A DNA stretch of 64,000 nucleotides from Candidatus Poseidoniales archaeon (GCA_012959435.1 DUDF01000113.1:3730-67729); one strand, 5' to 3'. Shown: positions 8,219 through 42,760, counted from the stretch's first letter. Notes: generated from the letters alone by a model not told the origin. Translations and numbers: made by a program.

Positions 8219-10504
8219 TTGGAGGCGAGTGATGTGGCAACAAATCAAATTAAAAAATCTAAAAAAATTGCAATAATTCTTGCGATGTTGACTATTACAA
8301 CTCTTCTCTCAGCACTACCATCTCCTGTACTTGCGCATTCACAAGGTGTACAAACGGAAACGATGGTAACCTTCACTGATGTTTCCGAAGCAAGTGGCAT
8401 GAGTATTGTTAACACCGGCCCACTAACAAATTGGGCTAGTTATGGTCCGGGAATTTCGGTAGATGATTGTGACCAAGATGGTGATATGGATGTCATGATA
8501 ACAGCAAGATTTGACCATCTTTCTTACGAAAATTTAGAATTTGAATCTGGTTCAATTCAATTCATGTTAAACAATGGAGATGGCACCTTCACTGATTGGT
8601 CCGAAGAATCTGGATTGAATTTACAAAATACAACTGTAATAGGATCATCTTGGGCTGATTACGATAATGATGGTGACAAAGATGTTTATCTCAGCGCTTT
8701 TGGTGAATCTAATGTCGAAAACTTAGATTCTGGAGAGAGAAATATTCTCTTCAAAAATAATGGGAATTGCCAGTTTACTGATGTCACTGCAAAAACAGGC
8801 GCTGGTCAAGATGCTCAGGCTAATGCCGTAGTGGTCAATGGAATCATCACCGAAGTCGTAATGCAAAACAGCGGCTCAGGCTATGCAACAACTGGTGGAC
8901 TTGCTCCAGCGATTTATTTCCGTGATATCAACGGAAATGGTGCGATGGCTGAAGTTATCGTCACCGTTGATGGTGAAATTTCATCTGTCAGTATTACCAA
9001 TGGAGGAGAAGGTTACGACGATGGAAATCCTCCTGAAGTGATTTTTGTCAGCGGAGTAGCGAATTATGGCCACAGCACAACTGCAATTTGGGCTGACTAT
9101 GACCATGACGGCGATGTTGACCTGTACTCAATGAATCTAGGAATTGTTGACGAGGAATTATACTGGGCGCGCACAGAAACCAACTTTCTCTATCGTAATG
9201 ATGGAGATGTTGATGGAGACGGAGAAATAGAATTCAGTGATGTCACGAAAATCGCTGGTGTTAGCGGCCAAAGTGAAGTCTCAGATTCACCAAATCAATT
9301 TTTCCTTTCGGGGCTGTACAGAATGGACCAACCTAGCCCATCAAACCCATCAACAATGGCACTTATCGCTTCAGCAGATCACCGAGGGACGGGGTTATCC
9401 TTTGCTGGAGTATGGTTTGACTATGATGGCGATGGCTGGGAAGATCTCTACATCGCTTCTGACTTCGGGATGTCACCAATATATCACAACAATCACGACG
9501 GTACTTTCACTGTGATGACAAAAGAACTGGGCATGGACCTACCAGGTACTGGTATGGGGGCGCACGCGGGTGATTGGGATGGAGATGGGGACCTTGACCT
9601 ATGTCACTCAAACTTTGGGCCAAACTACCTTTGGGAAAACGAAGATGGGAATTCATTCAGTGAGAGAAGCCGTGACCTAGGGTTCCGTGATGAGGGCTCA
9701 GCTGGCTCATTCGTTGCTGTAAATTGGGCATGTCAATTCTTTGACTACGACCTTGATGGTGATTTAGACATATTCTTTGGTGTTGGGAGAATCAACCGTT
9801 TTACTGCCTACAACAATAACACATTATATCGAAATGATGGTGATACCGATGGTGATGGTTTTGCCAATTTTGTAGACATTAGTGGTGAAATCGGCTTAAG
9901 GACTGGAACTAATGGTAACAAAACAATGGGTGTCTCAATCTTTGATTACGATGGTGATGGTGACTTAGATATCATGCTTGGGCACTCCGACCGTGCCCCA
10001 CAATTATTCTCAAACAACGCTGTTGAAGAAACTGGGCGCCATTGGCTCAAAGTTCAACTTGAAGGGCGACAAACTGATGTTAGTACATCGCAAGGCTTTG
10101 GGCAGCGTGATTATTCTAACAGTTATGGAACTGGATGCTTAGTCATAGTGACCCTTGAAGATGGTCATGAATTACGTCAGCATGTGTATGCTGGAAGCGG
10201 GTTCCTTGGTAGTAACGAGCCAACAGTTCACTTTGGTTTGGATGCTGATGATTCAGTCAAATCAGTTGAAGTTGTTTGGTCAACAGGAATTACTCAAATT
10301 GAAAGAAATGTTGAAGCAGACCAGACTCTAATGATGGAAGAACCAACAAGTTTGTTCTTCACACTATTCGGAATCGGCTTACATCAAAACATCAATACGG
10401 CGCTCTATCTGTTATTTACTATCATCTTTATTGGTGGGGCATTCAAACTTTACAACAAAGAAAATGATTTGACCACTGATAATAAAAACTCAGAAGAAGA
10501 GTAA
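8219..10504 (+). CDS. CRTAC1-like FG-GAP/VCBS repeat protein with ASPIC/UnbV C-terminal domain, secreted, TM-anchored
   Basis: 761 aa. Signal peptide. Repeated DxDxDGDxD propeller-blade Ca motifs (WADYDNDGDKDVY, WADYDHDGDVDLY, FDYDGDGWEDLY, FDYDLDGDLDIF, FDYDGDGDLDIM). UnbV_ASPIC-like tail (RHWLKVQLEGRQ...HFGLD...VEVVWSTG). C-terminal TM. Confidence 0.8.
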   Translation: MEASDVATNQIKKSKKIAIILAMLTITTLLSALPSPVLAHSQGVQTETMVTFTDVSEASGMSIVNTGPLTNWASYGPGISVDDCDQDGDMDVMITARFDHLSYENLEFESGSIQFMLNNGDGTFTDWSEESGLNLQNTTVIGSSWADYDNDGDKDVYLSAFGESNVENLDSGERNILFKNNGNCQFTDVTAKTGAGQDAQANAVVVNGIITEVVMQNSGSGYATTGGLAPAIYFRDINGNGAMAEVIVTVDGEISSVSITNGGEGYDDGNPPEVIFVSGVANYGHSTTAIWADYDHDGDVDLYSMNLGIVDEELYWARTETNFLYRNDGDVDGDGEIEFSDVTKIAGVSGQSEVSDSPNQFFLSGLYRMDQPSPSNPSTMALIASADHRGTGLSFAGVWFDYDGDGWEDLYIASDFGMSPIYHNNHDGTFTVMTKELGMDLPGTGMGAHAGDWDGDGDLDLCHSNFGPNYLWENEDGNSFSERSRDLGFRDEGSAGSFVAVNWACQFFDYDLDGDLDIFFGVGRINRFTAYNNNTLYRNDGDTDGDGFANFVDISGEIGLRTGTNGNKTMGVSIFDYDGDGDLDIMLGHSDRAPQLFSNNAVEETGRHWLKVQLEGRQTDVSTSQGFGQRDYSNSYGTGCLVIVTLEDGHELRQHVYAGSGFLGSNEPTVHFGLDADDSVKSVEVVWSTGITQIERNVEADQTLMMEEPTSLFFTLFGIGLHQNINTALYLLFTIIFIGGAFKLYNKENDLTTDNKNSEEE

Positions 10505-11594: not shown

Positions 11595-12965
11595 TCACAA
11601 ATCCCCATTACAGACTGGGCAATACTGCCAACTTTGTTCTACACCAATCCCACAGCGAGAGCAATTCTTGCCGGACTGAATGTTGTGGTGTATTGGTTGT
11701 GCTGGTGCACGAGGAGCATGAGGGCCACCACTTACCAAATCTGAAACCGAATTAAGAGCTGATTGCTCGGGTGGACTTGAGGGGCCTGCTGGCCAACCAG
11801 TATCCGGCATCTGTGGCGGTTCTTGAGTTGGCCATCCTGTTGTCGGAGTTGGTGGACCACTTGGTGCGATTGGAGCACGCTTTGGTGTGACTGCTTGAGG
11901 TGTTTGTTGCACGACTGGCTCTGGCTCCACTGGCTCTGTCGGTGCCGGTGATGATACAATTTGTGACTCTACAACAGGCTGGGGCTGTTCCACTACTGGA
12001 GGCGTGATTGGTAGGGGTACTGAAATGGGCTCTGCTTCAACCGGTGCAACTGGAGCATCAATTTCTGCAGCAGCAGAGAACTGAGAGGCAAATGCATCAC
12101 TGGCTGCGACCTGCTGGTCTTCAGTTGGTAGATTCTGTTTGACTTCAACTGTCGGCTCCCTTACAATAACCACTGGCTCAACGAATGGTTGTTCAGTTGG
12201 CTCTTGAGACACTACATCAACCGGTTGAGGTGATGTTGGGGCTGGAGTGAGCACCGGCACTGGCGCAGGTGCGAGAACTGCTGGAGCAGGTTGTGGTGAG
12301 GGAGGAACTGGTGCTGGAGCAGGCGCTGGGGCGAGAACTGCTGGAGCAGGTTGTGGTGACTGGGTTGCATGGGTTGGTGCTCCAAGACATGAAATTGGAG
12401 TCACAGAACCAGACTTCGCCTGCTCGATAGCGGTATTCAATTCTTGAGATAAATGTAACAACGTTACTTTGTTAGCAGCGGATGACGCTACCAATGCCGC
12501 ATATTGTGACACATAATGACCGAGTAATGGTAATCCACCGATTAGATGTCCGAGTCCAAACATTTTGAGAAGAGAAAAGATATCAGTTAGTGATTCAAGT
12601 GCATTCATCTCATGTTCGGGAAAACCCGGGTGGGCCCCTATGTTACCCTGTGAATCCTCGCCTCCAAGGTACAATCTTAGTGGATCACTGAGTGAAACCA
12701 ATCCAAACGGTCCGGTCAGAAGATAGTATATCTCACCACCCTCACAACCAAGTCTCTGTGCGGCTTCTTCAAAATCAAATTCTGGTTGTAAAACCAAGTC
12801 AATAGCAATAGAGTAAAACTCCCCCATTCCGTTTATTGGGTCGGTCTCATTGAGATGCAAAATAATGTCAGCCGAATCAGTCACACCGAAGTATGCTGCA
12901 GCCTCATCCACAGCAATCCCTTGAGGCATTGAGGCTCCTTCAACCTCATTTTCGCTTGGATTCAT
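11595..12965 (-). CDS. Hypothetical protein, Pro/Ala/Val-rich low-complexity middle with tandem repeat, C-terminal zinc ribbon
   Basis: 456 aa. Repeats PQPAPAVLAPAP. C-terminal CSRCG...CPVCNG (CxxC x2). Confidence 0.6.
   Translation of the reverse strand: MNPSENEVEGASMPQGIAVDEAAAYFGVTDSADIILHLNETDPINGMGEFYSIAIDLVLQPEFDFEEAAQRLGCEGGEIYYLLTGPFGLVSLSDPLRLYLGGEDSQGNIGAHPGFPEHEMNALESLTDIFSLLKMFGLGHLIGGLPLLGHYVSQYAALVASSAANKVTLLHLSQELNTAIEQAKSGSVTPISCLGAPTHATQSPQPAPAVLAPAPAPAPVPPSPQPAPAVLAPAPVPVLTPAPTSPQPVDVVSQEPTEQPFVEPVVIVREPTVEVKQNLPTEDQQVAASDAFASQFSAAAEIDAPVAPVEAEPISVPLPITPPVVEQPQPVVESQIVSSPAPTEPVEPEPVVQQTPQAVTPKRAPIAPSGPPTPTTGWPTQEPPQMPDTGWPAGPSSPPEQSALNSVSDLVSGGPHAPRAPAQPIHHNIQSGKNCSRCGIGVEQSWQYCPVCNGDL
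12262..12362. repeat. Tandem ~63-nt direct duplication inside Pro-rich CDS
   Basis: gcgagaactgctggagcaggttgtggtga occurs twice (about 12271-12299 and 12334-12362). Encodes SPQPAPAVLAPAP twice. Confidence 0.8.
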
Positions 12966-12991: not shown

Positions 12992-15900
12992 TCAATTTAA
13001 GCCGGCTTCATTGACAATATATCTTGATTGTTTGGCATTCCAGCCACCGGTTTGCAACTGACGAAGGATGTTTCTCTCAGATTCTCCTGAGCCGATTGAT
13101 GCACGAGCTTCACCAAGTGATTTCTCGTAATTTGCAGAATCTATAGGGGTGAAAAGGTCCTCCCATTTGCTTGGTGCTTTGGGTTGTTTCTTTTGCGTAT
13201 TTCCGGGTTCTGCTTTGTTCCCGCCCTGCGTCTTTCGAGTTGACCTTGTCTTGACATTCTCGGGTGTTGGTGCACCCGTAACCTTGCGAACTTTGCGAGA
13301 TGGTGCATTAGCAGGTGGTGCATCATCCGAAACTACTGCCCGTCGAGTCTTCTTGGCTCGCGGGGCATTGCTGGGCGGGCTACCTCCTGCACGACCTGGT
13401 GGGCCACTTGAGCCACCCGGACGACTTGGACCACCTCCTCCTCTAGGCCTTCTTGAAGGGGCACCTCCACCTGCACGGCTTGGAGGACCTGCTTGGCCTG
13501 CAGGGCCACCCCTACTAGGTTGATTATCCTCTAGTCCGGAAAATTTCTGCCTCGCGGCAGGCGCATTCCATCCACCTTGGGATTGTGATGCGAATATATC
13601 ATCATCATCCTCTTCAAATTCATCATACACATCATCATCATCTTCATCCCACTCATCTCCACCACGAATGAGCCTAATTACAAACAAAGAGATGATGACT
13701 AGAACTAGTAAAGCTCCAACACCGATGCCAATCATTTTCAAAGGTAAGGTTGAAGATTCGCTTGAACCATACCACTCATTGTACCAATCACATGATTGAT
13801 ATTCATCGGGAACTATCATCCCGGGACTTAAAGTTGGATTGTAAAAATCCTCCCATTTTGTACACTCATCTACGACGTTACCATCGGCACCAGTTGTTGC
13901 AGGGCAACCAACCCCTTGAACGCCATCTTTTACTCCTGCTGAAAGTGGGCATTCATCCCCTTCAAAACCAGTAATATTGTCCCCAAACCCATCACCATCA
14001 TTGTCCTTCCATTGAGTTGGGTCATTGATGAAAGCATCACCCCCTTCGTCAACACCCCATCCTGCAACGGGGTCAGACCAACCATCACCGTCTGTATCTG
14101 GGCAGCCCCAACGGTCACCATTTGGTGAACCTGTTGAATTACCAGCAACATTTGTACAACTATCACCCTGGAAACCACTTAATTCGTTACCAAAGCCATC
14201 AAAATCTAAGTCAAGCCACTGGGTTGGCTCAATTGGGAAATCGTCTACATCATCAAAGAAACCGTCTCCGTCAGTGTCAATATCATTTCGTGGGCAACCT
14301 ACTTCATCGACTACTGCACCATCAGTAGTCCCAGAACATTCATCAAGGGCGTTTGAAACACCATCGTTATCCTCATCAAGTTGATTTCGAGCACATCCAG
14401 TTACATTATCAAAATACTCATCGATTTGGAGCGTGTCTGTATTTGGGCATTCATCCTCAATGTCAGGGACACCATCTACATCGGTATCAAGTGTCAATTG
14501 GTCTTGACTACAACCATTTACATCAACCTCTGCAAGTGCAGTAGTATTAGCACAACGGTCTAGTGAATTTGAGACTCCATCACCGTCGTCATCCTTTTGA
14601 TTTTCAGAGCAACCCAGCCATTGACCTGAGGTATCAACTACCTCACCCGTCGTTGTGTTGCCACACACATCATCATCATCGATAATACCATCAGCATCAG
14701 AATCCTCTCCAGGAAGAGGACATCCGCGGCCTCCATCTCCATTAGAATAGCCAAATTGTTCAGGGCAAAAATCTCCATTTATACGATTTGTAAAATCTCC
14801 AAAACCATCACCATCAGTATCTCTCCACTGGTCTGCGTTTGAGCTATTTGAGTCAGCGTTTCCATTTGGGTGTGCACTTTCTGAAGAGTCAGGGTTAGAC
14901 CAGCCATCACCATCTTCATCTTGACATCCAAATCTATCAACGCTTGAATTACCCCAATTCACTGGACAAGAGTCAGGAGTAGTACCTGTGGGGTTGTCAC
15001 CAAAACCATCCAAGTCGGTGTCATTCCACTGGCTTGGGTCCTCGTTAAAAGCATCTTGCCGCCAAGCATTTGGAGTGGTATTATCCCCGTAATTATCTCC
15101 ATCTTTATCATGCCATTGTTGAGAACAGTTCGCGATACTGCCGCATGCTTCACCTGAATTGCCGTTTCCGCCAGGCCAATTATCAGCACATCCGTTACGG
15201 CCATCGGAATCTATTGCATTACATTGGCTACGATTGTATACCCAAGTAGATTCTTGGGCATTTTGAGATATGTGAGGGTCGGACCAACCATCTCCATCGG
15301 TATCTAGGCACCCTCCACGATCACTCGCTGAAAAACCTTGGAATTCGGGACATTGGTCACCTGTCCAATCAATATTGAACCAATCGGGGTCGCCATCACC
15401 ATCTGTGTCATGGCCATTGAATAAGCGAAGGGTTTCATTGGCATATTGGAAATTATGATTATCTCCCCAGCCATCATTATCCAAATCCTCCCATTGGTTA
15501 CCATTTAATGGATAAATATCGCTTGAAGAACCTCCACAGCAATCAGAGCCGTGGTTATCATAATGGCCATCTCCATCTGTATCTCTCTGTTGATACCAAT
15601 TCACTGGGTTTTGGTCAGCATCTGTACTCCAACCATCTCCATCTGAGTCTTCACAACCTTTCCTATCAACCCATGAATCCCCCCTAGTATTTTGGCAAAT
15701 ATCAACAGCGTCTGCCCATCCATCTAAATCTTGGTCACTACAACCAAAGTAACCCCATCTGCTCCCTCTATCAAGTAAATCAGTTCCACTGTTAATGCAT
15801 TGGTCGGCTGTAGGGCCGCCAGGATTATCTCCGTAGCCATCAGCATCAGCATCATTCCATTGGCCTCCAACAAAAGGAACTTCGTCCCAAGGATCGGGGA

Positions 15901-18900
15901 CAAAATCACGGTCCCAGTCACTGTAAATGCGGTAACTTGTCAAACGATTATTTGAATTTAAATCAAAGTGGCAAGCGACAACTCTGATTACACCAGTGGC
16001 ATCAGTTTCCATATCAACGCCGCAAATATCACCTGCTGTTGTTGCGGTATACACCGGTTCAACCGTTGAATCATGAATGATTGCCAATGTCATTCGCTCT
16101 ACTCCAGGGCCGCCATCAAAGGCTATCCAAGGAACCCCATCTCCGGTACTCCCTGCGCTAAACAAATCGCTCGAAAAATAACCAATTGACAAATCCACAC
16201 AATTCGCTGTACTAATGGTACATAATTTTGCATCGGAAGTTTGGGTTTGTTCGGTAAACAACACCATGTTTTGATTCATAATATGTGCCGTGATATCATA
16301 TGTTGGAGTCAATGACGTCATCATCAATGATGTGATGTTGCTACCATTTACTGACAATACTTCCCCCATACCGGAATTATTTACAAGGGCAACCTGCAAG
16401 GTACCATCACTTAGGCAAGCAACATCATTGTCACCTTGATATCCCCAAATTGAGAAGGTAGTAACACTTCCATTCGCATCTATGTAATTTAGGATTGTTT
16501 GGTTTGTAGTTACAACAGAACTAACTAATACACCTGTGCCATTATCAAGTTGACAACCAGAACTAGCGCCATATTCTTCAGAACCGTTTGAATTTGTACC
16601 ACTAATATTCCAACTATTACCTAAACTCGGTAATTGATGAGTTAGCGAGAATGCACTTGAAATTCCAGCACCAAGGGAACTATTGGTTACTACTGTAGAA
16701 GTCAAGAAGCCAGAATCTGTTTCCGCCCTCAATTCAACATCCGATACCGTGGCATTTTGGTAAGATGTTGTGTAAATTAAACTCTGCTCGTTATCAATAA
16801 CCAAATCAATATCCATTCGATTGTGTGTCGCAAGAGGGTGCTGCGTTGTCAGAATCGTGTGAGCTGCTTGCTCAACAAAATTATTGCTGTCATCAAGTAC
16901 AATCGTCTTTCCAGACCTAGTTACAACCATTGATGAAATCGCGGAATAGGATATTCCTTGCCATTCCTCAGCAGCATTTGTAATCGCATTTGGCCGTTCT
17001 AAATGGCGTGTTTGATTTAGTATACCTGATTTCACAAATAAGTGAAACCTGCCAGAATCATCCAAATAAAGATCAACAACATCAATGGGAGCGCCCGCCA
17101 TCACCATCGGAATATCAGAATATTCATTATTTCGCTTTTCAATTTGAATTACAGCACCTGCGGAGTTACCATCCATGTCCTTGTCAAGAGAGGTGACGAT
17201 AATCTCAAACTGGCCATCACCATCTACATCACCTCCACCATATATTGTGCGGCCAAGATGTTGCCCACTCACTCCTTCAATGAGAATTGAGTTTACCCCT
17301 TTCCGCAATAATTGTGTATTGTCAGCGAAGAAGTACTCAACTTTCCCAGCACCTACGCTGTTAATTCCAATTGATGAAATCGCGATTTCAGAAAGGCCGT
17401 CATCGTTAATGTCACCAATTGTTGACATTGCACTTCCAAATGCTTGGCTTGATTCCGTACCAATCAACTCGAGTGCTGGATTGTCAGGTAGTCCATTTGC
17501 TGAACCGCGTAGAACTGTAACTTTTCCTAAAGCCAAATTGTCGTACAGAGGTTCGCTATATGCAAAATCGTCATAACCATCTTGATTGACATCACCAATC
17601 CCAAGAACGGAATAGCCGAGCAGTGTGTTGGTTGTTGTCGTTGTCCAGTAATTATCAATTGACATCGCCCCTGCTTGTGATCCTGTGTATACCTCAACCC
17701 TACCATTACCCGTAAGGTCTGAAAACGAACCTGCAGCACCCAAAGCAATATCATCAAAACCATCACCATTGATGTCGCCTATTCCAGCCATAGACCAGCC
17801 TTGAATTACATTCTGCCAATATCCACGAGTATACCAATCGTAATCTATACTCGGCCCAGTTGCTGAACCTAAATACAGGTAGACTTTACCATCACCACCT
17901 GTTTGACCTGATTGTGTGAAACCAGTGGCAGCAACTAAAATATCGGCGTAACTATCGTTATTGACATCTCCAGCTGATGAAACGGTACCACCGAATTTAT
18001 CTCCACCTCCTTCACCTGAGACAGACCAATTTGCAGCCGAATAAGTACGATTACCACCGTAGAATATGTAAGAAACTCCCGTTGCAAATCCCAAACTGTT
18101 AGTTGCGCCGGTTGCCCCTATTAGAAGGTCAGAACATCCATCACCATTGACATCCCCTGCATTTGCCATTGCTGAACCAAATCTATCTCCGCCAGCACTT
18201 CCGGTCAGATTGTAATCTGGAGTAGATGAAAGGCCCATTCCTGTACCCCAAAAGATGCCAACAGCACCCGTTTCAGAATTTGCAGCCGGCCTGCTGACAA
18301 TTAAATCATCAATACCATCACAATCAAAGTCAAGGTCATTGATAGCTTGAGTTGCATACTCATCACTCACGGCACCGGTTGTCAAAGTGTCAATTGAAGG
18401 TGAAAGGCGGCCATTCTCTTGCCCTGTCAAGTCACGTACAACGGTTAACTCTGTAGAATTTGAAGAACCGTAAACATACTGAATATTTCCTGTTGATGGA
18501 TCCTTAGCAAACGACATGGCTGGCCCAATACCTTGGCCTGCAGTTAAAGTTGTGAGCGTCCAATTACCATCTGTACCTAAAATTCCATGAATCATTTGTG
18601 TCGTGTCTAAATTTTGATAGAATATATTCAGCGAATCATCAGCGTCAAGGTATGCGTCGTATTGGGCACCAACCCTTGTACCTACTAACAATTCTTGATG
18701 AGTCCACCAAGTACCGTATGAGGACAAATGAAGTCCATTGTTGGAATCTAGCCAAAGCACATTTTCAGCACCATCTGAGTCAAGTAAGAGGGTGATTTTT
18801 GAGACTTGAGTCGCATTTTCAATAGTCCTCATGTTCCAGAGTCCACTTGCTCTCTGATATGCCACCCTAAGGAATCCAGACTCATTTGTGTAAGCAATAT

Positions 18901-19366
18901 GCAATAGTTCTCGCTCATCAACAATGATTGAGCATTTCTTCCCAAGTTCTACGCCTCCAGCATCAATCTGAGTAAGACTAGTAGCGCCACCAAATTCGAG
19001 TGTGGCAATCCACACACCCCCTATATCCTGGTGTAAACACCCTCTAGCCCTACCTCTATCATCTCTTGAAAGTTCTATTTCATCAAAAGTGAGGGATGTG
19101 TTGAGAGTAGTTGTTTGCCAAATATCCATTCCCCGAGTAGAATCAACTATCCAATCTGTTGCGTTGAGAATCATGGTTTGACCAGCAAATTGTTCACCAC
19201 TGCCATTTGAAAACGAAGTGCTGGGAGAAACCACTTGATTTTGCTCAAGAATTGTTTCATCACTTGGTGAAATTGAGAGTATTGGAGTCACTACTGAAAC
19301 TAACAATAAAAGTATCAAGGCTGAAGGTAAGAACAACTCTCTGCTTGCTGCTCGTTCGGCCCCCAT
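12992..19366 (-). CDS. Giant surface protein: integrin-alpha-like FG-GAP propeller repeats plus long array of thrombospondin type-3 Ca-binding repeats, TM helix, ~270-aa cytoplasmic tail
   Basis: 2124 aa. Signal peptide. FG-GAP motifs (GDVNGDGCSDLLIGA, GDVNNDSYADILVAA, GDINGDGFDDIALGA, GDVNQDGYDDFAY, GDVDGDGQFEIIV). More than 20 DxDxDGxxDxxD TSP3 repeats (DTDGDGWSDP, DLDNDGWGDN...). TM IGIGVGALLVLVIISLFVIRLI. Acidic then Gly/Pro/Arg-rich tail. Confidence 0.88.
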   Translation of the reverse strand: MGAERAASRELFLPSALILLLLVSVVTPILSISPSDETILEQNQVVSPSTSFSNGSGEQFAGQTMILNATDWIVDSTRGMDIWQTTTLNTSLTFDEIELSRDDRGRARGCLHQDIGGVWIATLEFGGATSLTQIDAGGVELGKKCSIIVDERELLHIAYTNESGFLRVAYQRASGLWNMRTIENATQVSKITLLLDSDGAENVLWLDSNNGLHLSSYGTWWTHQELLVGTRVGAQYDAYLDADDSLNIFYQNLDTTQMIHGILGTDGNWTLTTLTAGQGIGPAMSFAKDPSTGNIQYVYGSSNSTELTVVRDLTGQENGRLSPSIDTLTTGAVSDEYATQAINDLDFDCDGIDDLIVSRPAANSETGAVGIFWGTGMGLSSTPDYNLTGSAGGDRFGSAMANAGDVNGDGCSDLLIGATGATNSLGFATGVSYIFYGGNRTYSAANWSVSGEGGGDKFGGTVSSAGDVNNDSYADILVAATGFTQSGQTGGDGKVYLYLGSATGPSIDYDWYTRGYWQNVIQGWSMAGIGDINGDGFDDIALGAAGSFSDLTGNGRVEVYTGSQAGAMSIDNYWTTTTTNTLLGYSVLGIGDVNQDGYDDFAYSEPLYDNLALGKVTVLRGSANGLPDNPALELIGTESSQAFGSAMSTIGDINDDGLSEIAISSIGINSVGAGKVEYFFADNTQLLRKGVNSILIEGVSGQHLGRTIYGGGDVDGDGQFEIIVTSLDKDMDGNSAGAVIQIEKRNNEYSDIPMVMAGAPIDVVDLYLDDSGRFHLFVKSGILNQTRHLERPNAITNAAEEWQGISYSAISSMVVTRSGKTIVLDDSNNFVEQAAHTILTTQHPLATHNRMDIDLVIDNEQSLIYTTSYQNATVSDVELRAETDSGFLTSTVVTNSSLGAGISSAFSLTHQLPSLGNSWNISGTNSNGSEEYGASSGCQLDNGTGVLVSSVVTTNQTILNYIDANGSVTTFSIWGYQGDNDVACLSDGTLQVALVNNSGMGEVLSVNGSNITSLMMTSLTPTYDITAHIMNQNMVLFTEQTQTSDAKLCTISTANCVDLSIGYFSSDLFSAGSTGDGVPWIAFDGGPGVERMTLAIIHDSTVEPVYTATTAGDICGVDMETDATGVIRVVACHFDLNSNNRLTSYRIYSDWDRDFVPDPWDEVPFVGGQWNDADADGYGDNPGGPTADQCINSGTDLLDRGSRWGYFGCSDQDLDGWADAVDICQNTRGDSWVDRKGCEDSDGDGWSTDADQNPVNWYQQRDTDGDGHYDNHGSDCCGGSSSDIYPLNGNQWEDLDNDGWGDNHNFQYANETLRLFNGHDTDGDGDPDWFNIDWTGDQCPEFQGFSASDRGGCLDTDGDGWSDPHISQNAQESTWVYNRSQCNAIDSDGRNGCADNWPGGNGNSGEACGSIANCSQQWHDKDGDNYGDNTTPNAWRQDAFNEDPSQWNDTDLDGFGDNPTGTTPDSCPVNWGNSSVDRFGCQDEDGDGWSNPDSSESAHPNGNADSNSSNADQWRDTDGDGFGDFTNRINGDFCPEQFGYSNGDGGRGCPLPGEDSDADGIIDDDDVCGNTTTGEVVDTSGQWLGCSENQKDDDGDGVSNSLDRCANTTALAEVDVNGCSQDQLTLDTDVDGVPDIEDECPNTDTLQIDEYFDNVTGCARNQLDEDNDGVSNALDECSGTTDGAVVDEVGCPRNDIDTDGDGFFDDVDDFPIEPTQWLDLDFDGFGNELSGFQGDSCTNVAGNSTGSPNGDRWGCPDTDGDGWSDPVAGWGVDEGGDAFINDPTQWKDNDGDGFGDNITGFEGDECPLSAGVKDGVQGVGCPATTGADGNVVDECTKWEDFYNPTLSPGMIVPDEYQSCDWYNEWYGSSESSTLPLKMIGIGVGALLVLVIISLFVIRLIRGGDEWDEDDDDVYDEFEEDDDDIFASQSQGGWNAPAARQKFSGLEDNQPSRGGPAGQAGPPSRAGGGAPSRRPRGGGGPSRPGGSSGPPGRAGGSPPSNAPRAKKTRRAVVSDDAPPANAPSRKVRKVTGAPTPENVKTRSTRKTQGGNKAEPGNTQKKQPKAPSKWEDLFTPIDSANYEKSLGEARASIGSGESERNILRQLQTGGWNAKQSRYIVNEAGLN

Positions 19367-19464
19367 GGGGCCGATGGAAACACTGTTCCTGTAAAAGGGT
19401 AGTCAATTGCTGTGGCGACCTTTAGACTAGCAAAACGAATAAGATAGCAGCCACTAGGGTAATC

Positions 19465-20094
19465 GTGGAACTAGATGTGACTCTGCTAATTGCGGCGGGG
19501 CAAATTAGTGATGTGGCCGTCCTAACCACAGCTTGTGAAGCGGCTACAAGAGTGATTGCAGTTGATGGCGGAGTACAGCATCTAAGACATCTGAATATAG
19601 CACCTAATATCATTATCGGCGACCTTGATTCAGCAAGTGATAGTGACCTTGTTTGGGGACAAGAAAATGGCTCTGAAATCATACGCCTAAAAGAACAGGA
19701 TTCAAGTGACCTTGCAAAAGCACTCAACCTGTGTAATGAACGCCAATGGCCACACATCCAAATCATCGGAATTGAGGGGGGGAGACTGGACCACCAACTA
19801 GGTAGTCTTGCATCTATTTCGGATGCCCCTAACGACCTGAATATCAAAGCAGAACTTTCTGATACAACATTGATCAGACTTACCGCCAACCAGAATCATA
19901 AACAAAAATTTTCTGGTATATTTTCGCTCTTCAGTTTTGGTCAATCTGTCGTCACTTTGACAGGTGCAGAATGGAACCTTGAGAATGATATTGTGACCTT
20001 CTCAACCAAAGGACTCTCAAATCAGTGTGATGACATCATAAACATCGTGGTTCATTCTGGTGATTCGCTCATTCTTCTAACCAACAAAAAATGA
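19465..20094 (+). CDS. Thiamine pyrophosphokinase
   Basis: 209 aa. IIIGDLDSASDSDLV (GDxDS motif) and QDSSDLAKAL (TD..KAL motif) are typical of the TPK catalytic domain. Confidence 0.7.
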   Translation: MELDVTLLIAAGQISDVAVLTTACEAATRVIAVDGGVQHLRHLNIAPNIIIGDLDSASDSDLVWGQENGSEIIRLKEQDSSDLAKALNLCNERQWPHIQIIGIEGGRLDHQLGSLASISDAPNDLNIKAELSDTTLIRLTANQNHKQKFSGIFSLFSFGQSVVTLTGAEWNLENDIVTFSTKGLSNQCDDIINIVVHSGDSLILLTNKK

Positions 20095-20611: not shown

Positions 20612-21985
20612 CTATAATTCGGAATAAGATACCCATTGTCCAGAAACTTGATCAAACCAGTCAACAGCACCATCAGGATGTTGCCGCCAGTGAACGCCGG
20701 TTGGGTCTACGTAAGATGGTAAACCATCAGAATCGGGGTCTAATTCCATGGCATTAACATCACCAAATGCTATTTCTTCCTCGCCGCGGCGATTCCACAT
20801 CGTACCACCAAACAATCCCAACAAAATTGAGACCGCTATTCCAATGATTAGAACAACTATCTGGGCTACAATTATTGATTCTCCGAAGAATGGTGTTGGT
20901 TCATATTCTTCACCAAGGGAACGGTCTGGCCACATATTTTCAGGCCCTGCCGCTTCTAAAACCTCAGCGGATACTTCGCCAATAGGTGGTAAGCGAACTA
21001 AGTTGAATGCACCTCGAGTGGATTGACCTTCTGGCGAAGTCACTGTGACCCTCACCTTACTGAATCCAACTTGCCAAAGACGACAATCAACTGTTGAAAA
21101 ACCAGGGACGAGCACATCTTCTCCTCGAGGGTCAGTAATTTCCCATTCAACAGCCATCAGTGCCATTACAGTTCCAATTGACGGTTCAATAGCAACAGTA
21201 CATGGCGAGCCAACTTCATCATTATTGCCAGACACATTGAGTGTGAATACTGGTGGAGGCAGTGTGTGAATAGTGAAATCTTTAGTTGTTGAAGTGGAGA
21301 ATCCAAGGGTATTCCGGTAAAACATTTCCAAGTGATAATCTCGAGCTGGCCAAGTTGAACAATCAATATCAGAAAGGTCACTAGGGACAAGCCATGGTGT
21401 ACCACTTAGGGAGATTACACCCGTTGCGCCATAGAGGTCACCAATCTCATCAAGAAACACTCTTTCAACTACACAATCATCACCCAAGAAAATGGTAGGT
21501 GCTGCTTCTAAATCAAATCTCAAGTATGGAGCAGCGAGACTGGCCATCAATTCATATTCACCAAAATCTTCTGAGAAAACTATCATGTTAGACTCAGCAT
21601 CCCATACCTTCAATCTAACAGTAAAAGTACCATCACCCCAAGCCTGAACATCTGTTGAACCGAAATAAGGGGTCGTACGGTTGAATGTGAGATTATCCCA
21701 GAAAGTTAGTGTCATTCCTGCATGTTCCACATCAACTTGAACTGCTGCCTCAGCATAGTGTGAAGTGGTATTGAGCAGATAGACGACTCTGATGGTATCT
21801 CGATCACCATCATTGTCTAAATCTAGCCTGTCAGCTCTTGAACTATCAACCCCAATGTGCGGGGCATCTTGGGCTGAAATGGCTGGTGCGAAAAGCGGTA
21901 CTAATAGAATAATAAGCGCCAAAAATGCAATACTCTGTTTACTCAAGGATTTCACCCCCATCCTCTTTGCGTAAAGCCGTAACAA
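20612..21985 (-). CDS. Secreted surface protein with C-terminal TM and acidic/Trp cytoplasmic tail
   Basis: 457 aa. Signal peptide. TM IIVAQIVVLIIGIAVSILLGLFGG. Tail WNRRGEEE...DWFDQVSGQW. Likely start at the internal Met (about 21961); 23-47 nt overlap with the upstream gene. Confidence 0.6.
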   Translation of the reverse strand: MLRLYAKRMGVKSLSKQSIAFLALIILLVPLFAPAISAQDAPHIGVDSSRADRLDLDNDGDRDTIRVVYLLNTTSHYAEAAVQVDVEHAGMTLTFWDNLTFNRTTPYFGSTDVQAWGDGTFTVRLKVWDAESNMIVFSEDFGEYELMASLAAPYLRFDLEAAPTIFLGDDCVVERVFLDEIGDLYGATGVISLSGTPWLVPSDLSDIDCSTWPARDYHLEMFYRNTLGFSTSTTKDFTIHTLPPPVFTLNVSGNNDEVGSPCTVAIEPSIGTVMALMAVEWEITDPRGEDVLVPGFSTVDCRLWQVGFSKVRVTVTSPEGQSTRGAFNLVRLPPIGEVSAEVLEAAGPENMWPDRSLGEEYEPTPFFGESIIVAQIVVLIIGIAVSILLGLFGGTMWNRRGEEEIAFGDVNAMELDPDSDGLPSYVDPTGVHWRQHPDGAVDWFDQVSGQWVSYSEL

Positions 21986-24299
21986 AAAGGAATGTTAAGA
22001 CGAAAATAATAATCGGTGGTAAGAATGTGAAAATTGAGGAAGAGGGATTTTCTGACATCAATGAAATGTGGGCATTAATGGTACCGTATGAGTCACTGAA
22101 ACCATCGCTATTGGAATCGGGACAACCTTGTAAATCAATGGACGAGGTGCCTGCCTCAGTAGGGCAGTCATCCCTTAGGCTTCCCATAGCGTTGTCACCA
22201 TAGCCATCACCATCTTGGTCGGACCATTGAAGGCGATTTTTAGGGAATGCATCTGCTTCCCCCTCTGGATTTGCCAACCATGTTTCATCAGCATCTGAAT
22301 AGCCATCTCGGTCTATATCTGGGCATCCTAGGCGGTCAATCAGTGAAACTCCAAGGCTAACTTCCTCAAATGGGCAAGCATCAGATTGATGGCCAAAACT
22401 GTTGTCTCCAAACCCATCGCCATCAGAATCTGCCCATTGGCTAGGGTCATACGGGAATCGGTCACCCATGTCACTATACCCATCATTGTCCGAATCTGTG
22501 CAACCATGACGGTCTTCTCGGCTAGTCCCAGGTGTTTCCTTGCATCGGTCTGGACTTGTTGCACCTGCTGCCTGATTATCACCAAAACCATCTCCATCAA
22601 TATCTTCCCACTGAGTTGGGTCATTGATGAAAGCATCAGCCTCACCAAATGGATTTGCTAACCAACCAAGTTCAGGCTGAGCATCCGAAGAGCCATCACC
22701 ATCTGTATCTGGGCAACCCCAACGGTCGCGATAAGATTTGCCAAAGGTCGCAACACATGAGTCTGATTGCCAAGCCTCAATTTCTTGATTATCACCAAAC
22801 CCATCTCCATCAACATCATGCCATTGAGTTATTTCTTCAGGGAATGCATCACCAAATCCAGAGGGGTGTGCTAACCAAGTACCATCAGCGTTTGAATATC
22901 CATCACCATCTGAATCTGGACAGCCATAACGGTCATGATGACTACTTCCAATCCTATTGATACAAGAATCTGGCTCAGAACCTGAAAGGTTGTCGCCATA
23001 CCCATCGCCATCTAAATCAGCCCACTGGGTTGGCTCATCAGAAAAATTGTCAGCCTGCCAAGCACCAGATGCAGTGTTATCACCATAACCATCTCCATCT
23101 GTGTCAAGCCACTGAGTTGGATTGTCTGGGAAAGCATCTGGGTCTGTACCAAGTGGATTATCACCAAAGCCATCTAAATCCCGGTCAGCCCATTGAGTAG
23201 GATCATTGGGGAAAGCGTCTGCACAGTGGGTTTCGTCGCTCTGACAACGAACTGGGTCGTATGTCCAGTTCATGTCCGGATTAGACCAGCCATCGCCATC
23301 GCCATCCACACAACCAAATCGGTCTTCTGTGGAATTACCCCATTCTGTTGGGCAAAAATCTGGCCGGGTTGCATTTTCAACAAATACTCCAATCCCTGTG
23401 CCATTTCGCATTACCCCCCAACTCATATCTGCCCAATTATCACCAAACTGGTCAGAATCGGTATCATGCCATTGAGTATTATCTTGGAAAAATGCGTCTG
23501 CACCATCAGAAATATACCACGGTAAATCTGACCAGAGTGAATTTGGGTCTGGGTCAGACCAGCCATCAGCATCACTGTCTGTGCAGCCGTTTCGGTCCTG
23601 CGTTGAATGACCGTAGAAATCAGGACAGCCATCAGGATTTGTAGCTGGTGCAGGATTGTCACCAAAGTCATCACCATCTGAATCAAGCCATTGAGTATTA
23701 TCGCTAGGGAAAGCATCTGCTCCTTGAGCCACAGACCAACCTGAACCAGGGTCACTATATCCATCCCCATCGGAGTCTGGGCAACCATTTCTATCAGATG
23801 TTGAATCACCTGCTACGGTGTCACAATCATCGTCATTATCGGTAAATCCATCATCATCAGTATCTCGGTATCCGGTCTGAAGTTGTGGAGTTACATCATA
23901 ATCGAATTGACTAGAAAACCATCCATCTGGTACTGCCTTAATGCGGAAAAAATACCAGTCATGGGATGTTGCAGTAGCCGCAATATTTCTAGTCCCGTCA
24001 TTGGCGAAACTCGTTGAAGTTAATTCATTCCCACCTGAATCGTAAATACCCATTTGTCCATCATAACCATCAAAGGTTCCATGGCAACATGTGCTCACAC
24101 TGAGGCTCACTGAATCTCCAGTCCAGGCTTCTATTTTCCACCAATCAGTAGTATCACCATCTGCGTCTACAGAACCACTGCTAGTCGCGCCGTCTGTAAG
24201 TACAGCAGCAGTAGCCATTGTGTCGTCAGCAGAAACGGTAGGAATCGGGATGAGTGCGAGGGCAATGAAAATCGCAATTGCACGTAGCCCGGCTCGCAT
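21939..24299 (-). CDS. Thrombospondin type-3 repeat surface protein with N-terminal pre-peptidase-C-like domain and C-terminal TM
   Basis: 786 aa. Signal peptide. TDWWKIEAWTGDSVSLSVS (PPC-like). Dense DxDxDGxxDxxD repeats. C-terminal TM. Confidence 0.82.
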   Translation of the reverse strand: MRAGLRAIAIFIALALIPIPTVSADDTMATAAVLTDGATSSGSVDADGDTTDWWKIEAWTGDSVSLSVSTCCHGTFDGYDGQMGIYDSGGNELTSTSFANDGTRNIAATATSHDWYFFRIKAVPDGWFSSQFDYDVTPQLQTGYRDTDDDGFTDNDDDCDTVAGDSTSDRNGCPDSDGDGYSDPGSGWSVAQGADAFPSDNTQWLDSDGDDFGDNPAPATNPDGCPDFYGHSTQDRNGCTDSDADGWSDPDPNSLWSDLPWYISDGADAFFQDNTQWHDTDSDQFGDNWADMSWGVMRNGTGIGVFVENATRPDFCPTEWGNSTEDRFGCVDGDGDGWSNPDMNWTYDPVRCQSDETHCADAFPNDPTQWADRDLDGFGDNPLGTDPDAFPDNPTQWLDTDGDGYGDNTASGAWQADNFSDEPTQWADLDGDGYGDNLSGSEPDSCINRIGSSHHDRYGCPDSDGDGYSNADGTWLAHPSGFGDAFPEEITQWHDVDGDGFGDNQEIEAWQSDSCVATFGKSYRDRWGCPDTDGDGSSDAQPELGWLANPFGEADAFINDPTQWEDIDGDGFGDNQAAGATSPDRCKETPGTSREDRHGCTDSDNDGYSDMGDRFPYDPSQWADSDGDGFGDNSFGHQSDACPFEEVSLGVSLIDRLGCPDIDRDGYSDADETWLANPEGEADAFPKNRLQWSDQDGDGYGDNAMGSLRDDCPTEAGTSSIDLQGCPDSNSDGFSDSYGTINAHISLMSENPSSSIFTFLPPIIIFVLTFLFVTALRKEDGGEILE

Positions 24300-41863: not shown

Positions 41864-42760
41864 GTGTCAATGCGTGACAAAAAACAAACACCTCATTCCA
41901 AATTGCTGGATAGTTTAGGTGATTTCCTCGGAGAAAAAGGACGGGGAGGGGAACTACTCGAATCAGCGCCGTCAAAATGGGAAAAACATGGTGACCTTAT
42001 CTTACTTCCAACTGACTCTTTTAGTGGTTGGGATAACTTAGCAGGGACGGAACTATGGGAATTAGTTGCCAACTCACTAGGTGGAAAAAGACTAGGAATA
42101 AAAGGTGAGATATCTGGTTCTGAGCGCAGACCTGATGTAGAATTGCTATTGGGTAAAGAAGGATGGGTGACCCACAAGGAGTACGGGATTGAATATTCAT
42201 TTGATGTCAGAAAATCAATGTTTTCAGCAGGTAATTTGCCTGAAAGAGGTAGATTGGGTGAACTTGATTGTAAAGGTGAAATCATTCTAGATTTGTATGC
42301 TGGAATTGGATACTACACATTGCCGTTGTTAGCACGCGCTGAAGCGGCGCATGTACACGCCTGTGAATGGTCAGAAGATGCGGTTTTTGCTCTGAATCAT
42401 AATCTAATAGCAAATGGTGTTAGTGATAACTGTACAATTCATGCTGGTGACAATCAAGTTTCATTGAACACCGGCGGTAGTGCAGCAGCCGTAATTGGTA
42501 CATGTGACCGTGTAATTCTCGGCCTACTACCATCGTCAGAAAATGGTTGGAATCTAGCTCTTTCAGCTCTCAAACAAGAAGGTGGGATCCTACATCTTCA
42601 TGGAAATGCACAAGGTGGAAATGAAATTGAATGGGCTGAAGGAGTCGCATCCGATTTGGGAAATATGAGTGGCCGTAAAGCCACCGTGCAACATCTAGTC
42701 AAAGTAAAGTGGTACGCACCACATATACGCCATTGTGTTGCTGATATCAAAATCAGTTGA
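41864..42760 (+). CDS. Trm5/Taw2-family (Met-10+ like) SAM-dependent tRNA modification enzyme
   Basis: 298 aa. ILDLYAGIGYYTLPLL (motif I). ACEWSEDAVFALNHNLIANGV. GDN. Gap between motifs typical of Trm5/TYW2. Confidence 0.6.
   Translation: MSMRDKKQTPHSKLLDSLGDFLGEKGRGGELLESAPSKWEKHGDLILLPTDSFSGWDNLAGTELWELVANSLGGKRLGIKGEISGSERRPDVELLLGKEGWVTHKEYGIEYSFDVRKSMFSAGNLPERGRLGELDCKGEIILDLYAGIGYYTLPLLARAEAAHVHACEWSEDAVFALNHNLIANGVSDNCTIHAGDNQVSLNTGGSAAAVIGTCDRVILGLLPSSENGWNLALSALKQEGGILHLHGNAQGGNEIEWAEGVASDLGNMSGRKATVQHLVKVKWYAPHIRHCVADIKIS

Follow-up and report, generated by a model that had tools for sequence, protein, structure and literature searches.

What lies behind the membrane helix of a very large archaeal adhesin, and what could it do inside the cell? 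The question is raised by a gene in the window, that is, the whole 64,000-nt stretch of DNA that was analyzed, whose source organism (Marine Group II, Poseidoniales) has its closest relatives in Thalassarchaeaceae. Its product ends in a long Gly/Pro/Arg-rich extension. Full-length orthologs from Poseidoniales MAGs have 2111–2150 aa. The features of the locus are collected in table 1.

Table 1. Features of the adhesin locus in window coordinates
Feature	Position	Strand	Basis or remark
Complete gene, 2124-aa type I membrane adhesin	12992..19366	-	ORF list and translation; stop codon 12992-12994
Putative signal peptide, ~aa 1-32 (MGAERAASRELFLPSALILLLLVSVVTPILSIS)	19271..19366	-	read from the translation by eye
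FG-GAP repeat region, ~aa 341-745	17132..18346	-	Pfam matches
TSP3-like calcium-binding repeat region, ~aa 1171-1840	13847..15856	-	20 DxDxDG motifs
Single transmembrane helix, aa 1878-1900 (MIGIGVGALLVLVIISLFVIRLI)	13667..13735	-	hydropathy and AF2
Juxtamembrane RGG and polyacidic block, aa 1901-1925, ends ...DDDDIF	13592..13666	-	net charge -15 (count)
Short motif GGW(N/K)AP(A/S)A(R/T)Q(D/K)FSG, aa 1926-1946, in disordered region	13529..13591	-	alignment
Gly/Pro/Ser/Arg-rich block, aa 1947-2000, degenerate PPSRGGG-type heptads, GC peak	13367..13528	-	composition
Basic Thr/Ser-rich block, aa 2001-2066	13169..13366	-	net charge +13; conserved motifs
58-aa C-terminal three-helix domain (KWEDLFTP...ERNILRQLQTGGWNAKQSRYIVNEAGLN)	12995..13168	-	AF2; conservation
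Antisense 124-aa ORF	13149..13523	+	ORF list; by-product of composition, not a gene
Downstream 456-aa gene: N-domain, Pro/Ala-rich linker, C-terminal zinc ribbon	11595..12965	-	candidate cytoplasmic partner

A sequence-only reading of the locus had named the product an integrin-like/TSP3 surface protein. The ORF, the FG-GAP repeats and the DxDxDG motifs agree with this name, but the Pfam TSP_3 model stays below its threshold (E=0.0097, 16 bits against a cut-off of 25). FG-GAP was matched in four stretches (E=4.7e-14, 52.3 bits, cut-off 22.1) and FG-GAP_3 was matched as well (E=2.1e-07, 31.8 bits, cut-off 26.9); this presumably propeller-type region is 70–92% identical to that of the orthologs. 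A motif count gave 22 DxDxDG motifs in the adhesin, 20 of which lie within aa 1172–1788. The NCBIfam model throspo3_MtsC was matched partially (7.5e-12, 44.9 bits against a cut-off of 350), and the adhesin seems to have this repeat type in common without being that equivalog.

The putative signal peptide begins with a charged n-region, followed by a hydrophobic core and a c-region of small residues. The transmembrane (TM) helix reaches a Kyte–Doolittle maximum of 3.0 and is helical in the AF2 model; it had been expected at ~13650–13720, and its presence holds while its coordinates are corrected as in table 1. In the ectodomain there are 34 N-glycosylation sequons (expected 21.3 ± 3.9) and 40 Cys, whereas the count over the translated tail gave zero of both. 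Given the putative signal peptide, the lone TM helix with RLIRGG on its inner side, and the restriction of sequons and Cys to the ectodomain, the tail is placed in the cytoplasm, as had been proposed. It comprises 224 aa (aa 1901–2124, window 12995–13666) and not the ~270 aa first estimated. A surface protein processed by the PGF-CTERM/archaeosortase route was rejected, as these 224 aa follow the TM helix and the NCBIfam search showed no PGF-CTERM match in the adhesin.

The DNA encoding the tail could raise the suspicion of an artefact or of foreign DNA, that is, a true stop just after the TM helix, a horizontal island or an antisense gene. No other 200-nt stretch of the 64 kb is as rich in GC as positions 13301–13500 (0.63; the mean is 0.44, sd 0.045; peak values 0.63–0.66 against 0.44), and several frames are open there. 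The composition computed along the gene showed that the peak is confined to codon positions 1 and 2: GC1/GC2 of the RGG block are 0.80/0.97, while GC3 is 0.20–0.35 (0.20 for the aa 1947–2000 block) against 0.315 in the ectodomain part of the gene. The peak is therefore due to the codons of Gly (GGN), Pro (CCN), Arg (CGN/AGR) and Ala (GCN). In 35% of the synonymous-codon shuffles the antisense strand stayed free of stops over 130 codons or more, 130 being the length observed, so the openness follows from the encoded amino-acid composition. Further frames are also open in the GC-rich stretch of the orthologs, and dS within the antisense ORF is not below that of the ectodomain. An overlapping antisense gene on the plus strand was thus rejected, and so was a horizontally acquired GC island, with GC3 unchanged and dS not depressed. 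The claim of a high-GC island with both strands open survives as regards the peak and the ORF, but not as an island in the evolutionary sense. The same frame is intact in 10 independently assembled species and in metagenome contigs by the dozen, with purifying selection acting in the adhesin frame, and the explanation by artefact or foreign DNA, to which we give next to no credence, is already refuted.

Orthologous tails are present in 10 species-representative Poseidoniales genomes with 50–81% identity. The same order of parts, that is, TM helix, polyacidic block with aromatic motif, Pro/Ser/Arg/Gly repeats, basic Thr/Ser motifs and 58-aa domain, is found in divergent relatives of ~2060–2174 aa (P0016, P0030, P0034, P0048, and P0052) and is kept down to ~30% identity. 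One cluster of these relatives is labelled Poseidoniaceae, so that the sample spans both families of the order. The tails are specific to this adhesin family. Two findings had been named beforehand as grounds for giving up the idea, a stop directly behind the TM helix and an unconserved tail; neither was observed.

Selection on the tail was estimated as dN/dS (NG86, dS 0.4–1.3), and no segment comes near 1. The values are 0.065–0.13 for the ectodomain and 0.11–0.25 for the disordered region; within the tail they are 0.04–0.18 for the acidic block with the motif next to it, 0.09–0.38 for the Gly/Pro/Ser/Arg-rich (RGG) block, 0.10–0.24 for the basic block and 0.03–0.11 for the C-terminal domain. 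Constraint is weaker in the disordered blocks than in the remainder of the protein. The alignments show the tail to be a real, translated module that selection maintains and whose parts keep a fixed order. A neutral low-complexity extension, in which slippage repeats drift and which serves at most as stop-transfer or spacer, would fit the variable repeat number, the 21-nt tandem array of ortholog L010 as recent slippage, and the highest dN/dS of the gene in the RGG block (up to 0.38). This explanation is nevertheless very improbable and already disfavored: the constraint in all segments, the persistent order of parts, the invariant short motifs and the highly constrained terminal domain stand against it.

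In the AF2 model of a 254-aa query, residues 31–196 have pLDDT <50. Disorder, which had been predicted, thus extends over ~165 aa, with folding limited to the last ~58 aa. The acidic and RGG/PGG strings quoted in the sequence-only reading were both found exactly in the translation. On the contrary, the extreme terminus is not Lys/Arg-rich as it had stated; the basic block precedes the near-neutral folded domain.

Each part of the disordered segment has its own conserved signature. The acidic block, of 13–22 D/E, is kept in the entire adhesin family and is closed by an aromatic motif of the (I/V/W)F type. Other surface proteins within the 64-kb window commonly have an acidic cytoplasmic tail too, and for this reason the block may be generic. 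The short motif that follows was taken from the alignment of the window protein with the nine orthologs covering the region. In the Gly/Pro/Ser/Arg-rich block (G17 P12 S8 R7 of 54 residues), the repeat copy number differs among the aligned orthologs. The basic block contains KxTRRxV, (S/T)RK(V/T)RKVxG and KTRST(R/K)K as invariant alignment columns, and the divergent relatives have the equivalent motifs PVRRTRRT / VRKTRKT. The net charge of aa 1947–2066 is about +19.

Such charge blocks, together with multivalent PSRG repeats, could by themselves cluster the tails or form a condensate under the membrane, which would raise avidity with no dedicated partner. The strong segregation of charge, conserved family-wide, and the disorder of the region are consistent with self-association, and a variable repeat copy number would tune valency. 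It would leave unexplained, however, both the specific short motifs that are conserved and the folded C-terminal domain, and we consider it doubtful.

The RGG character attributed to the tail is true of a part of the family. Di- and tri-RGG motifs are reportedly defined by a spacing of 0–4 residues. The repeat-block triplets of the window protein, at aa 1952 and 1975, are 20 residues apart, whereas ortholog L010 does have at least two triplets no more than 4 residues apart: it carries seven perfect GGGPPSR heptads (RGG-GPPS-RGG x7), encoded by 7.2 copies of the 21-nt repeat with 95% matches. Regularly spaced RGG (RGG-x4-RGG) characterizes the L008–L010 clade. RGG triplets are missing in many family members; for instance, the motif scan of divergent members showed none in P0030, P0034, and P0048. 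True RGG motifs are thus clade-specific, and the family-wide feature is a Pro/Ser/Arg(/Gly)-rich repeat. Eukaryotic RGG/RG proteins such as FUS, hnRNPs and nucleolin resemble the tail in their Gly/Arg-rich disordered sequence and, for L008–L010, in the regular RGG. In the adhesin, though, the repeats are Pro/Ser-rich and membrane-tethered and do not accompany RRM/RNA-binding domains.

The C-terminal domain is the most constrained element of the tail and had been overlooked. Its three-helix bundle is modelled with pLDDT ~91–93 over the last ~55 aa of the tail, and the domain modelled alone again gives three helices (pLDDT 85.9, pTM 0.70). Identity to the orthologs is 68–91%. An invariant LQxxGWxxxQS(R/K)xI runs from helix 2 over a Gly-Trp turn into helix 3, which bears the polar Q/S/R. 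The domain had no match in Pfam, NCBIfam or PDB. Among the matches inspected from 48 representatives (E<=1e-3), the genuine ones, that is, single stretches covering the domain, were all at the extreme C-terminus of the adhesin family. Two multi-stretch matches, P0013 and P0024, proved to be bacterial Ig-like repeats and not relatives of the domain. The domain belongs to no described family and, to judge from the matches inspected, is confined to this position in this adhesin family.

These features argue for a reading to which we give a probability of about 0.55: the region is the cytoplasmic tail of the adhesin, made of a flexible disordered tether and a C-terminal docking module for a cytoplasmic partner. 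The disordered segment would be a tether of variable length, whose Pro/Ser/Arg/Gly repeats expand and contract, with blocks of opposite charge (−15, then about +19) and short linear motifs. The three-helix domain is the likelier docking module and would couple the adhesin to the partner. As possible docking targets, the sequence-only reading had suggested nucleic acid, a cytoskeletal partner or a condensate.

The same parts could alternatively bind DNA or RNA through the RG/Pro repeats, the basic motifs of the form (R/K)(R/K)T(R/K)(R/K)T and an HTH-like domain. The tail would then hold nucleoid or mRNA to the membrane beneath the adhesin, or it would be freed by intramembrane proteolysis and act as a regulator, in a Notch-/anti-sigma-like manner. 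The positive charge of the repeat and basic blocks, the formal tri-RGG array of L010 and related species and the polar residues of the invariant helix 3 motif are compatible with this. Foldseek also placed DNA-binding three-helix domains among the fold neighbors at TM-score ~0.5–0.65 (query-length normalized), all with E>0.2. The best of these weak neighbors include the Mu transposase I-beta DNA-binding subdomain, RecX and a response-regulator HTH. Small phage proteins are found there too, and one of these carries a putative DNA-binding annotation. On the other hand, every fold match is non-significant, nothing being better than E=1.3 (PDB) or 0.24 (BFVD), and the three-helix fold is generic. 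The C-terminal domain is about neutral (net charge −1), and 24 family members matched neither HTH nor SAP nor any further nucleic-acid-binding family in Pfam/NCBIfam at E<=10. Many members of the family lack RGG triplets. No protease or regulator is linked to the gene in the Poseidoniales neighborhoods examined. On balance, a nucleic-acid tether or membrane-tethered regulator seems unlikely, if worth keeping in mind.

For the docking reading, the downstream gene provides the most obvious candidate partner. Its N-domain is conserved, and it adjoins the adhesin at each of the 10 orthologous loci and, judged by sequence, at the divergent locus L011. In L012 a co-directional gene, cut by the contig end, also lies 3′ of the adhesin. 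The gap of 26 nt contains a GGAG-like (SD-like) motif and no T-tract or terminator, and the two genes are apparently co-transcribed. TPK and M29 peptidase genes are likewise syntenic, and the adjacency may be due only to the generally conserved gene order of the region. The downstream protein has no Pfam or PDB match; in other lineages it includes an EF-hand pair, and such a partner could add a calcium-sensitive link inside to the calcium-binding ectodomain. The neighborhood showed no beta-integrin-like gene.

Carried further, the arrangement could represent an archaeal 'adhesome', in which the adhesin is wired through tether and docking domain to the zinc-ribbon effector for outside-in signaling, or its HTH-like end binds the nucleoid as a membrane-tethered regulator. 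This is speculative and rather improbable. If true, either version would be the first case of receptor-like signaling or anchoring via an adhesin tail in Archaea, and Poseidoniales are the most abundant planktonic archaeal order.

Comparable architectures exist elsewhere. FimV/HubP/TspA are polar hub proteins of Gammaproteobacteria, in which a small conserved C-terminal helical domain recruits partners. They resemble the adhesin in that an extracytoplasmic domain is joined by one TM helix to a long, highly acidic cytoplasmic stretch of low complexity, which contains repeats and is followed by a terminal helical domain; the top PDB fold match is in fact the FimV TPR3 C-terminal fragment 4mal (27% identity, non-significant at E=1.3). 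NCBIfam holds a model of the FimV C-terminal domain, but neither the tail nor the 24 domain sequences matched it at E<=10. The adhesin differs further in the absence of LysM (no Pfam match), its ~1870-aa FG-GAP/TSP3 ectodomain, the extra basic block and PSRG repeats, and its archaeal host.

Integrin alpha chains and cadherins share the type I topology, calcium-binding ectodomain repeats and, in the case of integrin alpha, FG-GAP, and for their cytoplasmic tails, as for this one, a link between adhesion and partners inside the cell is expected. In cadherins, too, the tail is disordered until it is bound. However, the leg domains of Integrin_alpha2 (thigh/calf) gave no Pfam match at E<=0.1, GFFKR is replaced after the TM helix by RLIRGGDEWDEDDDD, and the adhesin tail, with 224 aa, has other motifs and a folded domain at its end. 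To our knowledge, there are no catenin, talin or kindlin counterparts in these archaea. The resemblance to FimV/HubP, cadherin and integrin tails is one of architecture, without homology.

No family model or paper describing the cytoplasmic tail or the C-terminal domain was found in Pfam, NCBIfam or the literature. The thrombospondin type-3/FG-GAP 'adhesion' proteins of Poseidoniales are the same gene family as the window adhesin, and its members are labelled in databases as 'thrombospondin type 3 repeat-containing protein', 'integrin alpha' or 'hypothetical'. Thrombospondin genes have been reported as widespread in Poseidoniales and taken as a sign of adhesion (Rinke et al. 2019, PMC6461757).

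The adhesin, a protein of 2124 aa, ends in a cytoplasmic tail, the most important part of which is a previously undescribed three-helix domain at the C-terminus. The ectodomain contains 34 sequons, where 21.3 +/- 3.9 are expected, together with 40 Cys residues; the tail has neither, and its location is cytoplasmic. In the calcium-repeat region, Pfam TSP_3 remains below threshold (E=0.0097) and NCBIfam throspo3_MtsC matches partially (7.5e-12, 44.9 bits vs a cut-off of 350 bits). The acidic and RGG/PGG strings quoted in the sequence-only reading match the translation exactly. The long tail proposed there does exist, but it measures 224 aa instead of ~270 aa, and its terminus is a folded end of 58 aa (the terminal domain) rather than a Lys/Arg-rich stretch.

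Layout of the adhesin, its tail and the downstream protein
Feature	Window position	Strand	Description
Adhesin gene	12992..19366	minus	ORF encoding 2124 aa
Adhesin N-terminus			signal-peptide-like start, then ~300-aa unassigned region
FG-GAP repeats			Pfam FG-GAP E=4.7e-14, 4 stretches; FG-GAP_3 E=2.1e-07
Middle region, after FG-GAP repeats			~425 aa, unassigned
Calcium-repeat region			~670 aa; 20 DxDxDG calcium-binding motifs, out of 22 in the whole protein
Single TM helix	13667-13735		aa 1878-1900
Tail			aa 1901-2124, 224 aa
Tail, island 1			R(L/I)IRGG, directly past TM helix
Tail, island 2			DDWD(D/E)DDD...DIF
Tail, island 3			GGW(N/K)AP(A/S)A(R/T)QDFSG
Tail, heptads			PPSRGGG-like, copy number varies between orthologues
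Tail, island after heptads			KxTRRxV
Tail, next island			(S/T)RK(V/T)RKVxG
Tail, island before terminal domain			KTRST(R/K)K
Terminal domain			last 58 aa (2067-2124), almost invariant in alignment
Divergent tail, part 1			TM helix
Divergent tail, part 2			13-22 D/E within first 45 aa, end (I/V/W/F)F or WxPF
Divergent tail, part 3			Pro/Ser/Arg(/Gly)-rich repeats, e.g. SRGPP, GPSRGPSSGPGG
Divergent tail, part 4			basic motifs PVRRTRRT / VRKTRKT / KKVRKA
Divergent tail, part 5			terminal domain
Downstream gene	11595..12965	minus	456 aa, next to adhesin gene
Downstream protein, part 1			conserved N-domain, ~200 aa
Downstream protein, part 2			variable linker, Pro/Ala or Q/P
Downstream protein, part 3			C-terminal CxxC...CxxC zinc ribbon (HNIQSGKNCSRCGIGVEQSWQYCPVCN)

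A word-indexed search with the TM helix and tail as query returned only five close matches, all of them metagenome fragments. When one genome per GTDB species was scanned with a pattern, 10 loci came up, all from Poseidoniales and several labelled Thalassarchaeaceae. The orthologues at these loci are 2111-2150 aa long with 50-81% identity in the tail, where conserved islands are separated by a variable spacer. Identity to the window's sequence is as high in the terminal domain (68-91%) as in the FG-GAP repeats (70-92%), and reaches 47-80% in the repeat and basic blocks. The Nei-Gojobori dN/dS of seven pairs is 0.03-0.11 for the terminal domain, 0.065-0.13 for the ectodomain, 0.11-0.25 for the whole disordered part of the tail and 0.09-0.38 for its Gly/Pro/Ser/Arg-rich repeat block. 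The tail is selectively maintained, and neutral drift, for which the repeat block offers the highest ratios, is disfavoured, with a slim chance at best. Since the orthologous tails are conserved in 10 loci and dN/dS is low, with no stop right behind the TM helix, neither of the outcomes that would have overturned the sequence-only reading (a sequencing or frameshift artefact, or an unconserved tail) was found.

AlphaFold2 on the TM helix and tail (alignment of 6 sequences) gave the helix, then ~165 residues at pLDDT <50, as the earlier claim of intrinsic disorder had it, and finally a three-helix bundle at pLDDT ~91; the models thus show a tail predicted to be disordered over ~165 aa and folded at its end. 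The terminal domain alone (24 sequences) was modelled with a mean pLDDT of 85.9 and a pTM of 0.70, with a short DLF helix and helices of 19, 10 and 13 residues. Invariant throughout the family are the F of DLF and the L, Q, G, W, Q and I of LQxxGWxxxQSxxI.

The domain profile was run exhaustively with HMMER against 1.84 billion cluster representatives and retrieved 48 proteins at E<=1e-3. In all single-stretch matches inspected, the domain lies at the extreme C-terminus, and the complete proteins have 2061-2174 aa. In the tails of divergent relatives, the order of parts is retained at ~30% identity. The multi-stretch matches inspected (the proteins P0013 and P0024) are spurious, being Ig-like repeats of bacteria ('TFTPTDTANYN'). 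Among the names of the matched clusters are 'thrombospondin type 3 repeat-containing protein [Candidatus Poseidoniaceae archaeon]', 'integrin alpha' and 'hypothetical protein'; as one label is Poseidoniaceae, the adhesin family spans both families of Marine Group II. Within the window, phmmer with filters off detected the domain in no other ORF, and an 'APSKWE' string in ORF 41864..42760 is a coincidence. The tail is specific to this adhesin family.

Searches of Pfam and NCBIfam with the whole tail, and with 24 terminal-domain sequences at E<=10, gave nothing consistent; VpsR (5 of the 24, E>=0.03) and MDY2_C (3 of the 24) were taken as noise. A sequence profile search of PDB found no relative (best E=0.19, spurious), and Foldseek with whole-tail and domain-only models against PDB and BFVD found nothing at E<=0.001. 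The weak Foldseek neighbours, FimV TPR3, COMMD HN, RecX, Mu I-beta and small phage proteins, are three-helix modules of a generic type; the four named ones and the PEX14 N-terminal domain are retained as analogies, none reaching E<=0.001. The terminal domain is a new small domain family of 58 aa.

The high-GC island noticed earlier is present as a peak, 13301-13500 being the stretch of 200 nt with the highest GC in the 64 kb (0.63 vs a mean of 0.44, sd 0.045), but its status as an island does not hold. In the Gly/Pro/Arg/Ala block, GC1 is 0.80 and GC2 0.97 with a GC3 of only 0.20-0.35, compared with 0.315 in the ectodomain-coding part. The peak is therefore set by the amino acids, and the synonymous positions retain the AT-rich signature of the genome, so the DNA is not foreign and a horizontal-transfer island is ruled out. 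The next-ranking stretches (about 11750-12450) fall in the downstream gene, inside its Pro/Ala-rich linker, which indicates the same composition effect. Both strands are open at the peak, as had been noted; the plus-strand ORF is 13149..13523, and its openness is expected from composition: in 2000 synonymous-codon shuffles of the tail, at least 130 antisense codons stayed open in 35%. Further frames are also open in every orthologue, and the block shows no reduction of dS (0.42-1.13) relative to the ectodomain (0.39-1.02). By these three results an overlapping antisense gene is ruled out. That the tail region is an artefact, an island or an overlapping gene, as the GC peak and the open frame might suggest, is disfavoured or refuted and extremely improbable. 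The GC aspect is ordinary; in AT-rich genomes, a local GC peak where both strands are open can result from amino-acid composition alone and should not be taken for an island or an overlapping gene.

RGG triplets vary from eight in the tail of the relative L010 to three in the window's adhesin and none in several relatives. From the earlier description of an RGG-like disordered tail, the conserved cytoplasmic disorder stands; the RGG character is clade-specific and does not define the family. In L010, positions 9481-9631 consist of 7.2 copies of the 21-nt unit GAGGAGGTGGCCCACCAAGTA (encoding GGGPPSR; 95% matches), which points to a recent slippage-driven expansion, and the orthologous repeat in the window is degenerate. 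Binding of nucleic acid by the tail, as its RGG triplets might suggest, seems unlikely given their patchy presence. The charge blocks of the tail (-15, then +6 and +13) could also let tails cluster with one another, which we consider somewhat less probable still.

The reading of the tail as a docking tether on the adhesin is partly supported, its function being what we infer. The disordered part would serve as a flexible tether whose length can be tuned, carrying charge blocks of opposite sign and short linear motifs, and the terminal domain as its docking element. The downstream zinc-ribbon protein would be the first candidate partner. Its gene follows the adhesin gene after 26 nt, with a GGAG-like motif and no T-tract, and adjoins it co-directionally in all 10 orthologous loci. 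L011 is a divergent locus, and the gene that comes after its adhesin shares the N-domain and zinc ribbon; in L012, a co-directional gene, cut by the contig end and known from its position, comes after the adhesin as well. Wider synteny is likewise conserved (TPK upstream, M29 peptidase downstream), so adjacency alone is weak evidence for an interaction. By eye the protein has no signal peptide and is presumably cytoplasmic. Its N-domain had no match in Pfam or PDB, its only homologues being six unannotated metagenome fragments. The protein of L007, L009, L010 and L011 contains an EF-hand pair, which is absent in the window's clade.

In bacterial FimV/HubP hubs, an extracytoplasmic domain and one TM helix are combined with a long cytoplasmic region that is acidic and repetitive, and a small, conserved helical domain at the C-terminus serves recruitment. 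They are the closest architectural analogue known to us, but the adhesin lacks the LysM and FimV C-terminal domains that define them. A membrane adhesin equipped with a tether and a docking module in the cytoplasm would be of a kind already known and new for Archaea. Poseidoniales are uncultured and, to our knowledge, gene content is the only basis for inferring their attachment to particles or phytoplankton. They are the dominant archaea of the surface ocean (Rinke et al. 2019, PMC6461757), and their widespread thrombospondin genes point to adhesion; the literature searches yielded this general remark (PMC6461757) and no description of the tail. The ~2100-aa FG-GAP/TSP3 adhesin carries a cytoplasmic module conserved order-wide. 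Its 58-aa domain, its 224-aa tail and the unannotated 456-aa neighbour could be expressed to ask whether adhesion in archaea is linked to the inside of the cell.

Other surface proteins are encoded in the window. The product of 8219-10504 (+), 761 aa with FG-GAP_3 (E=9.6e-35), ASPIC/UnbV, a C-terminal TM helix and an acidic tail, is a second FG-GAP surface protein near the adhesin. That of 21939-24299 (-), 786 aa with TSP3-like DxDGDG(Y/F)GDN repeats and a C-terminal TM helix without long tail, looks like a paralogue of the calcium-repeat region; Pfam gave nothing for it at E<=0.01. Two large surface proteins, of 1631 aa with beta-helix and PKD domains (28689-33584, -) and of 1018 aa (38723-41779, -), each possess one TM helix, near the C-terminus, and behind it an acidic tail in the cytoplasm; such tails seem general in type I membrane proteins of this organism. 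Trp-rich acidic C-termini of the ORFs 48015-48722 (-) (EWWRDDNGAWWFREPGQDDWYPGK) and 20612-21985 (-) (HWRQHPDGAVDWFDQVSGQWVSY) appear WW-like by eye, and were rejected as partners of the Pro-rich repeats, having no Pfam match at E<=10. A 155-aa TTG-start ORF (19422-19889, -) overlaps almost entirely the opposite-strand thiamin pyrophosphokinase gene (19465-20094, +; TPK_catalytic E=5e-23) and is most likely spurious. Finally, 4148-6163 (-) and 6160-8091 (-), two paralogues in tandem, belong to the animal haem peroxidases (Pfam An_peroxidase, E=7.9e-143 and 1.8e-119, respectively), an unusual enzyme family in an archaeon. Both are hydrophobic at the N-terminus and carry a TM anchor at the other end, and judging from ORF sizes the pair is kept at the syntenic loci L003 and L007.
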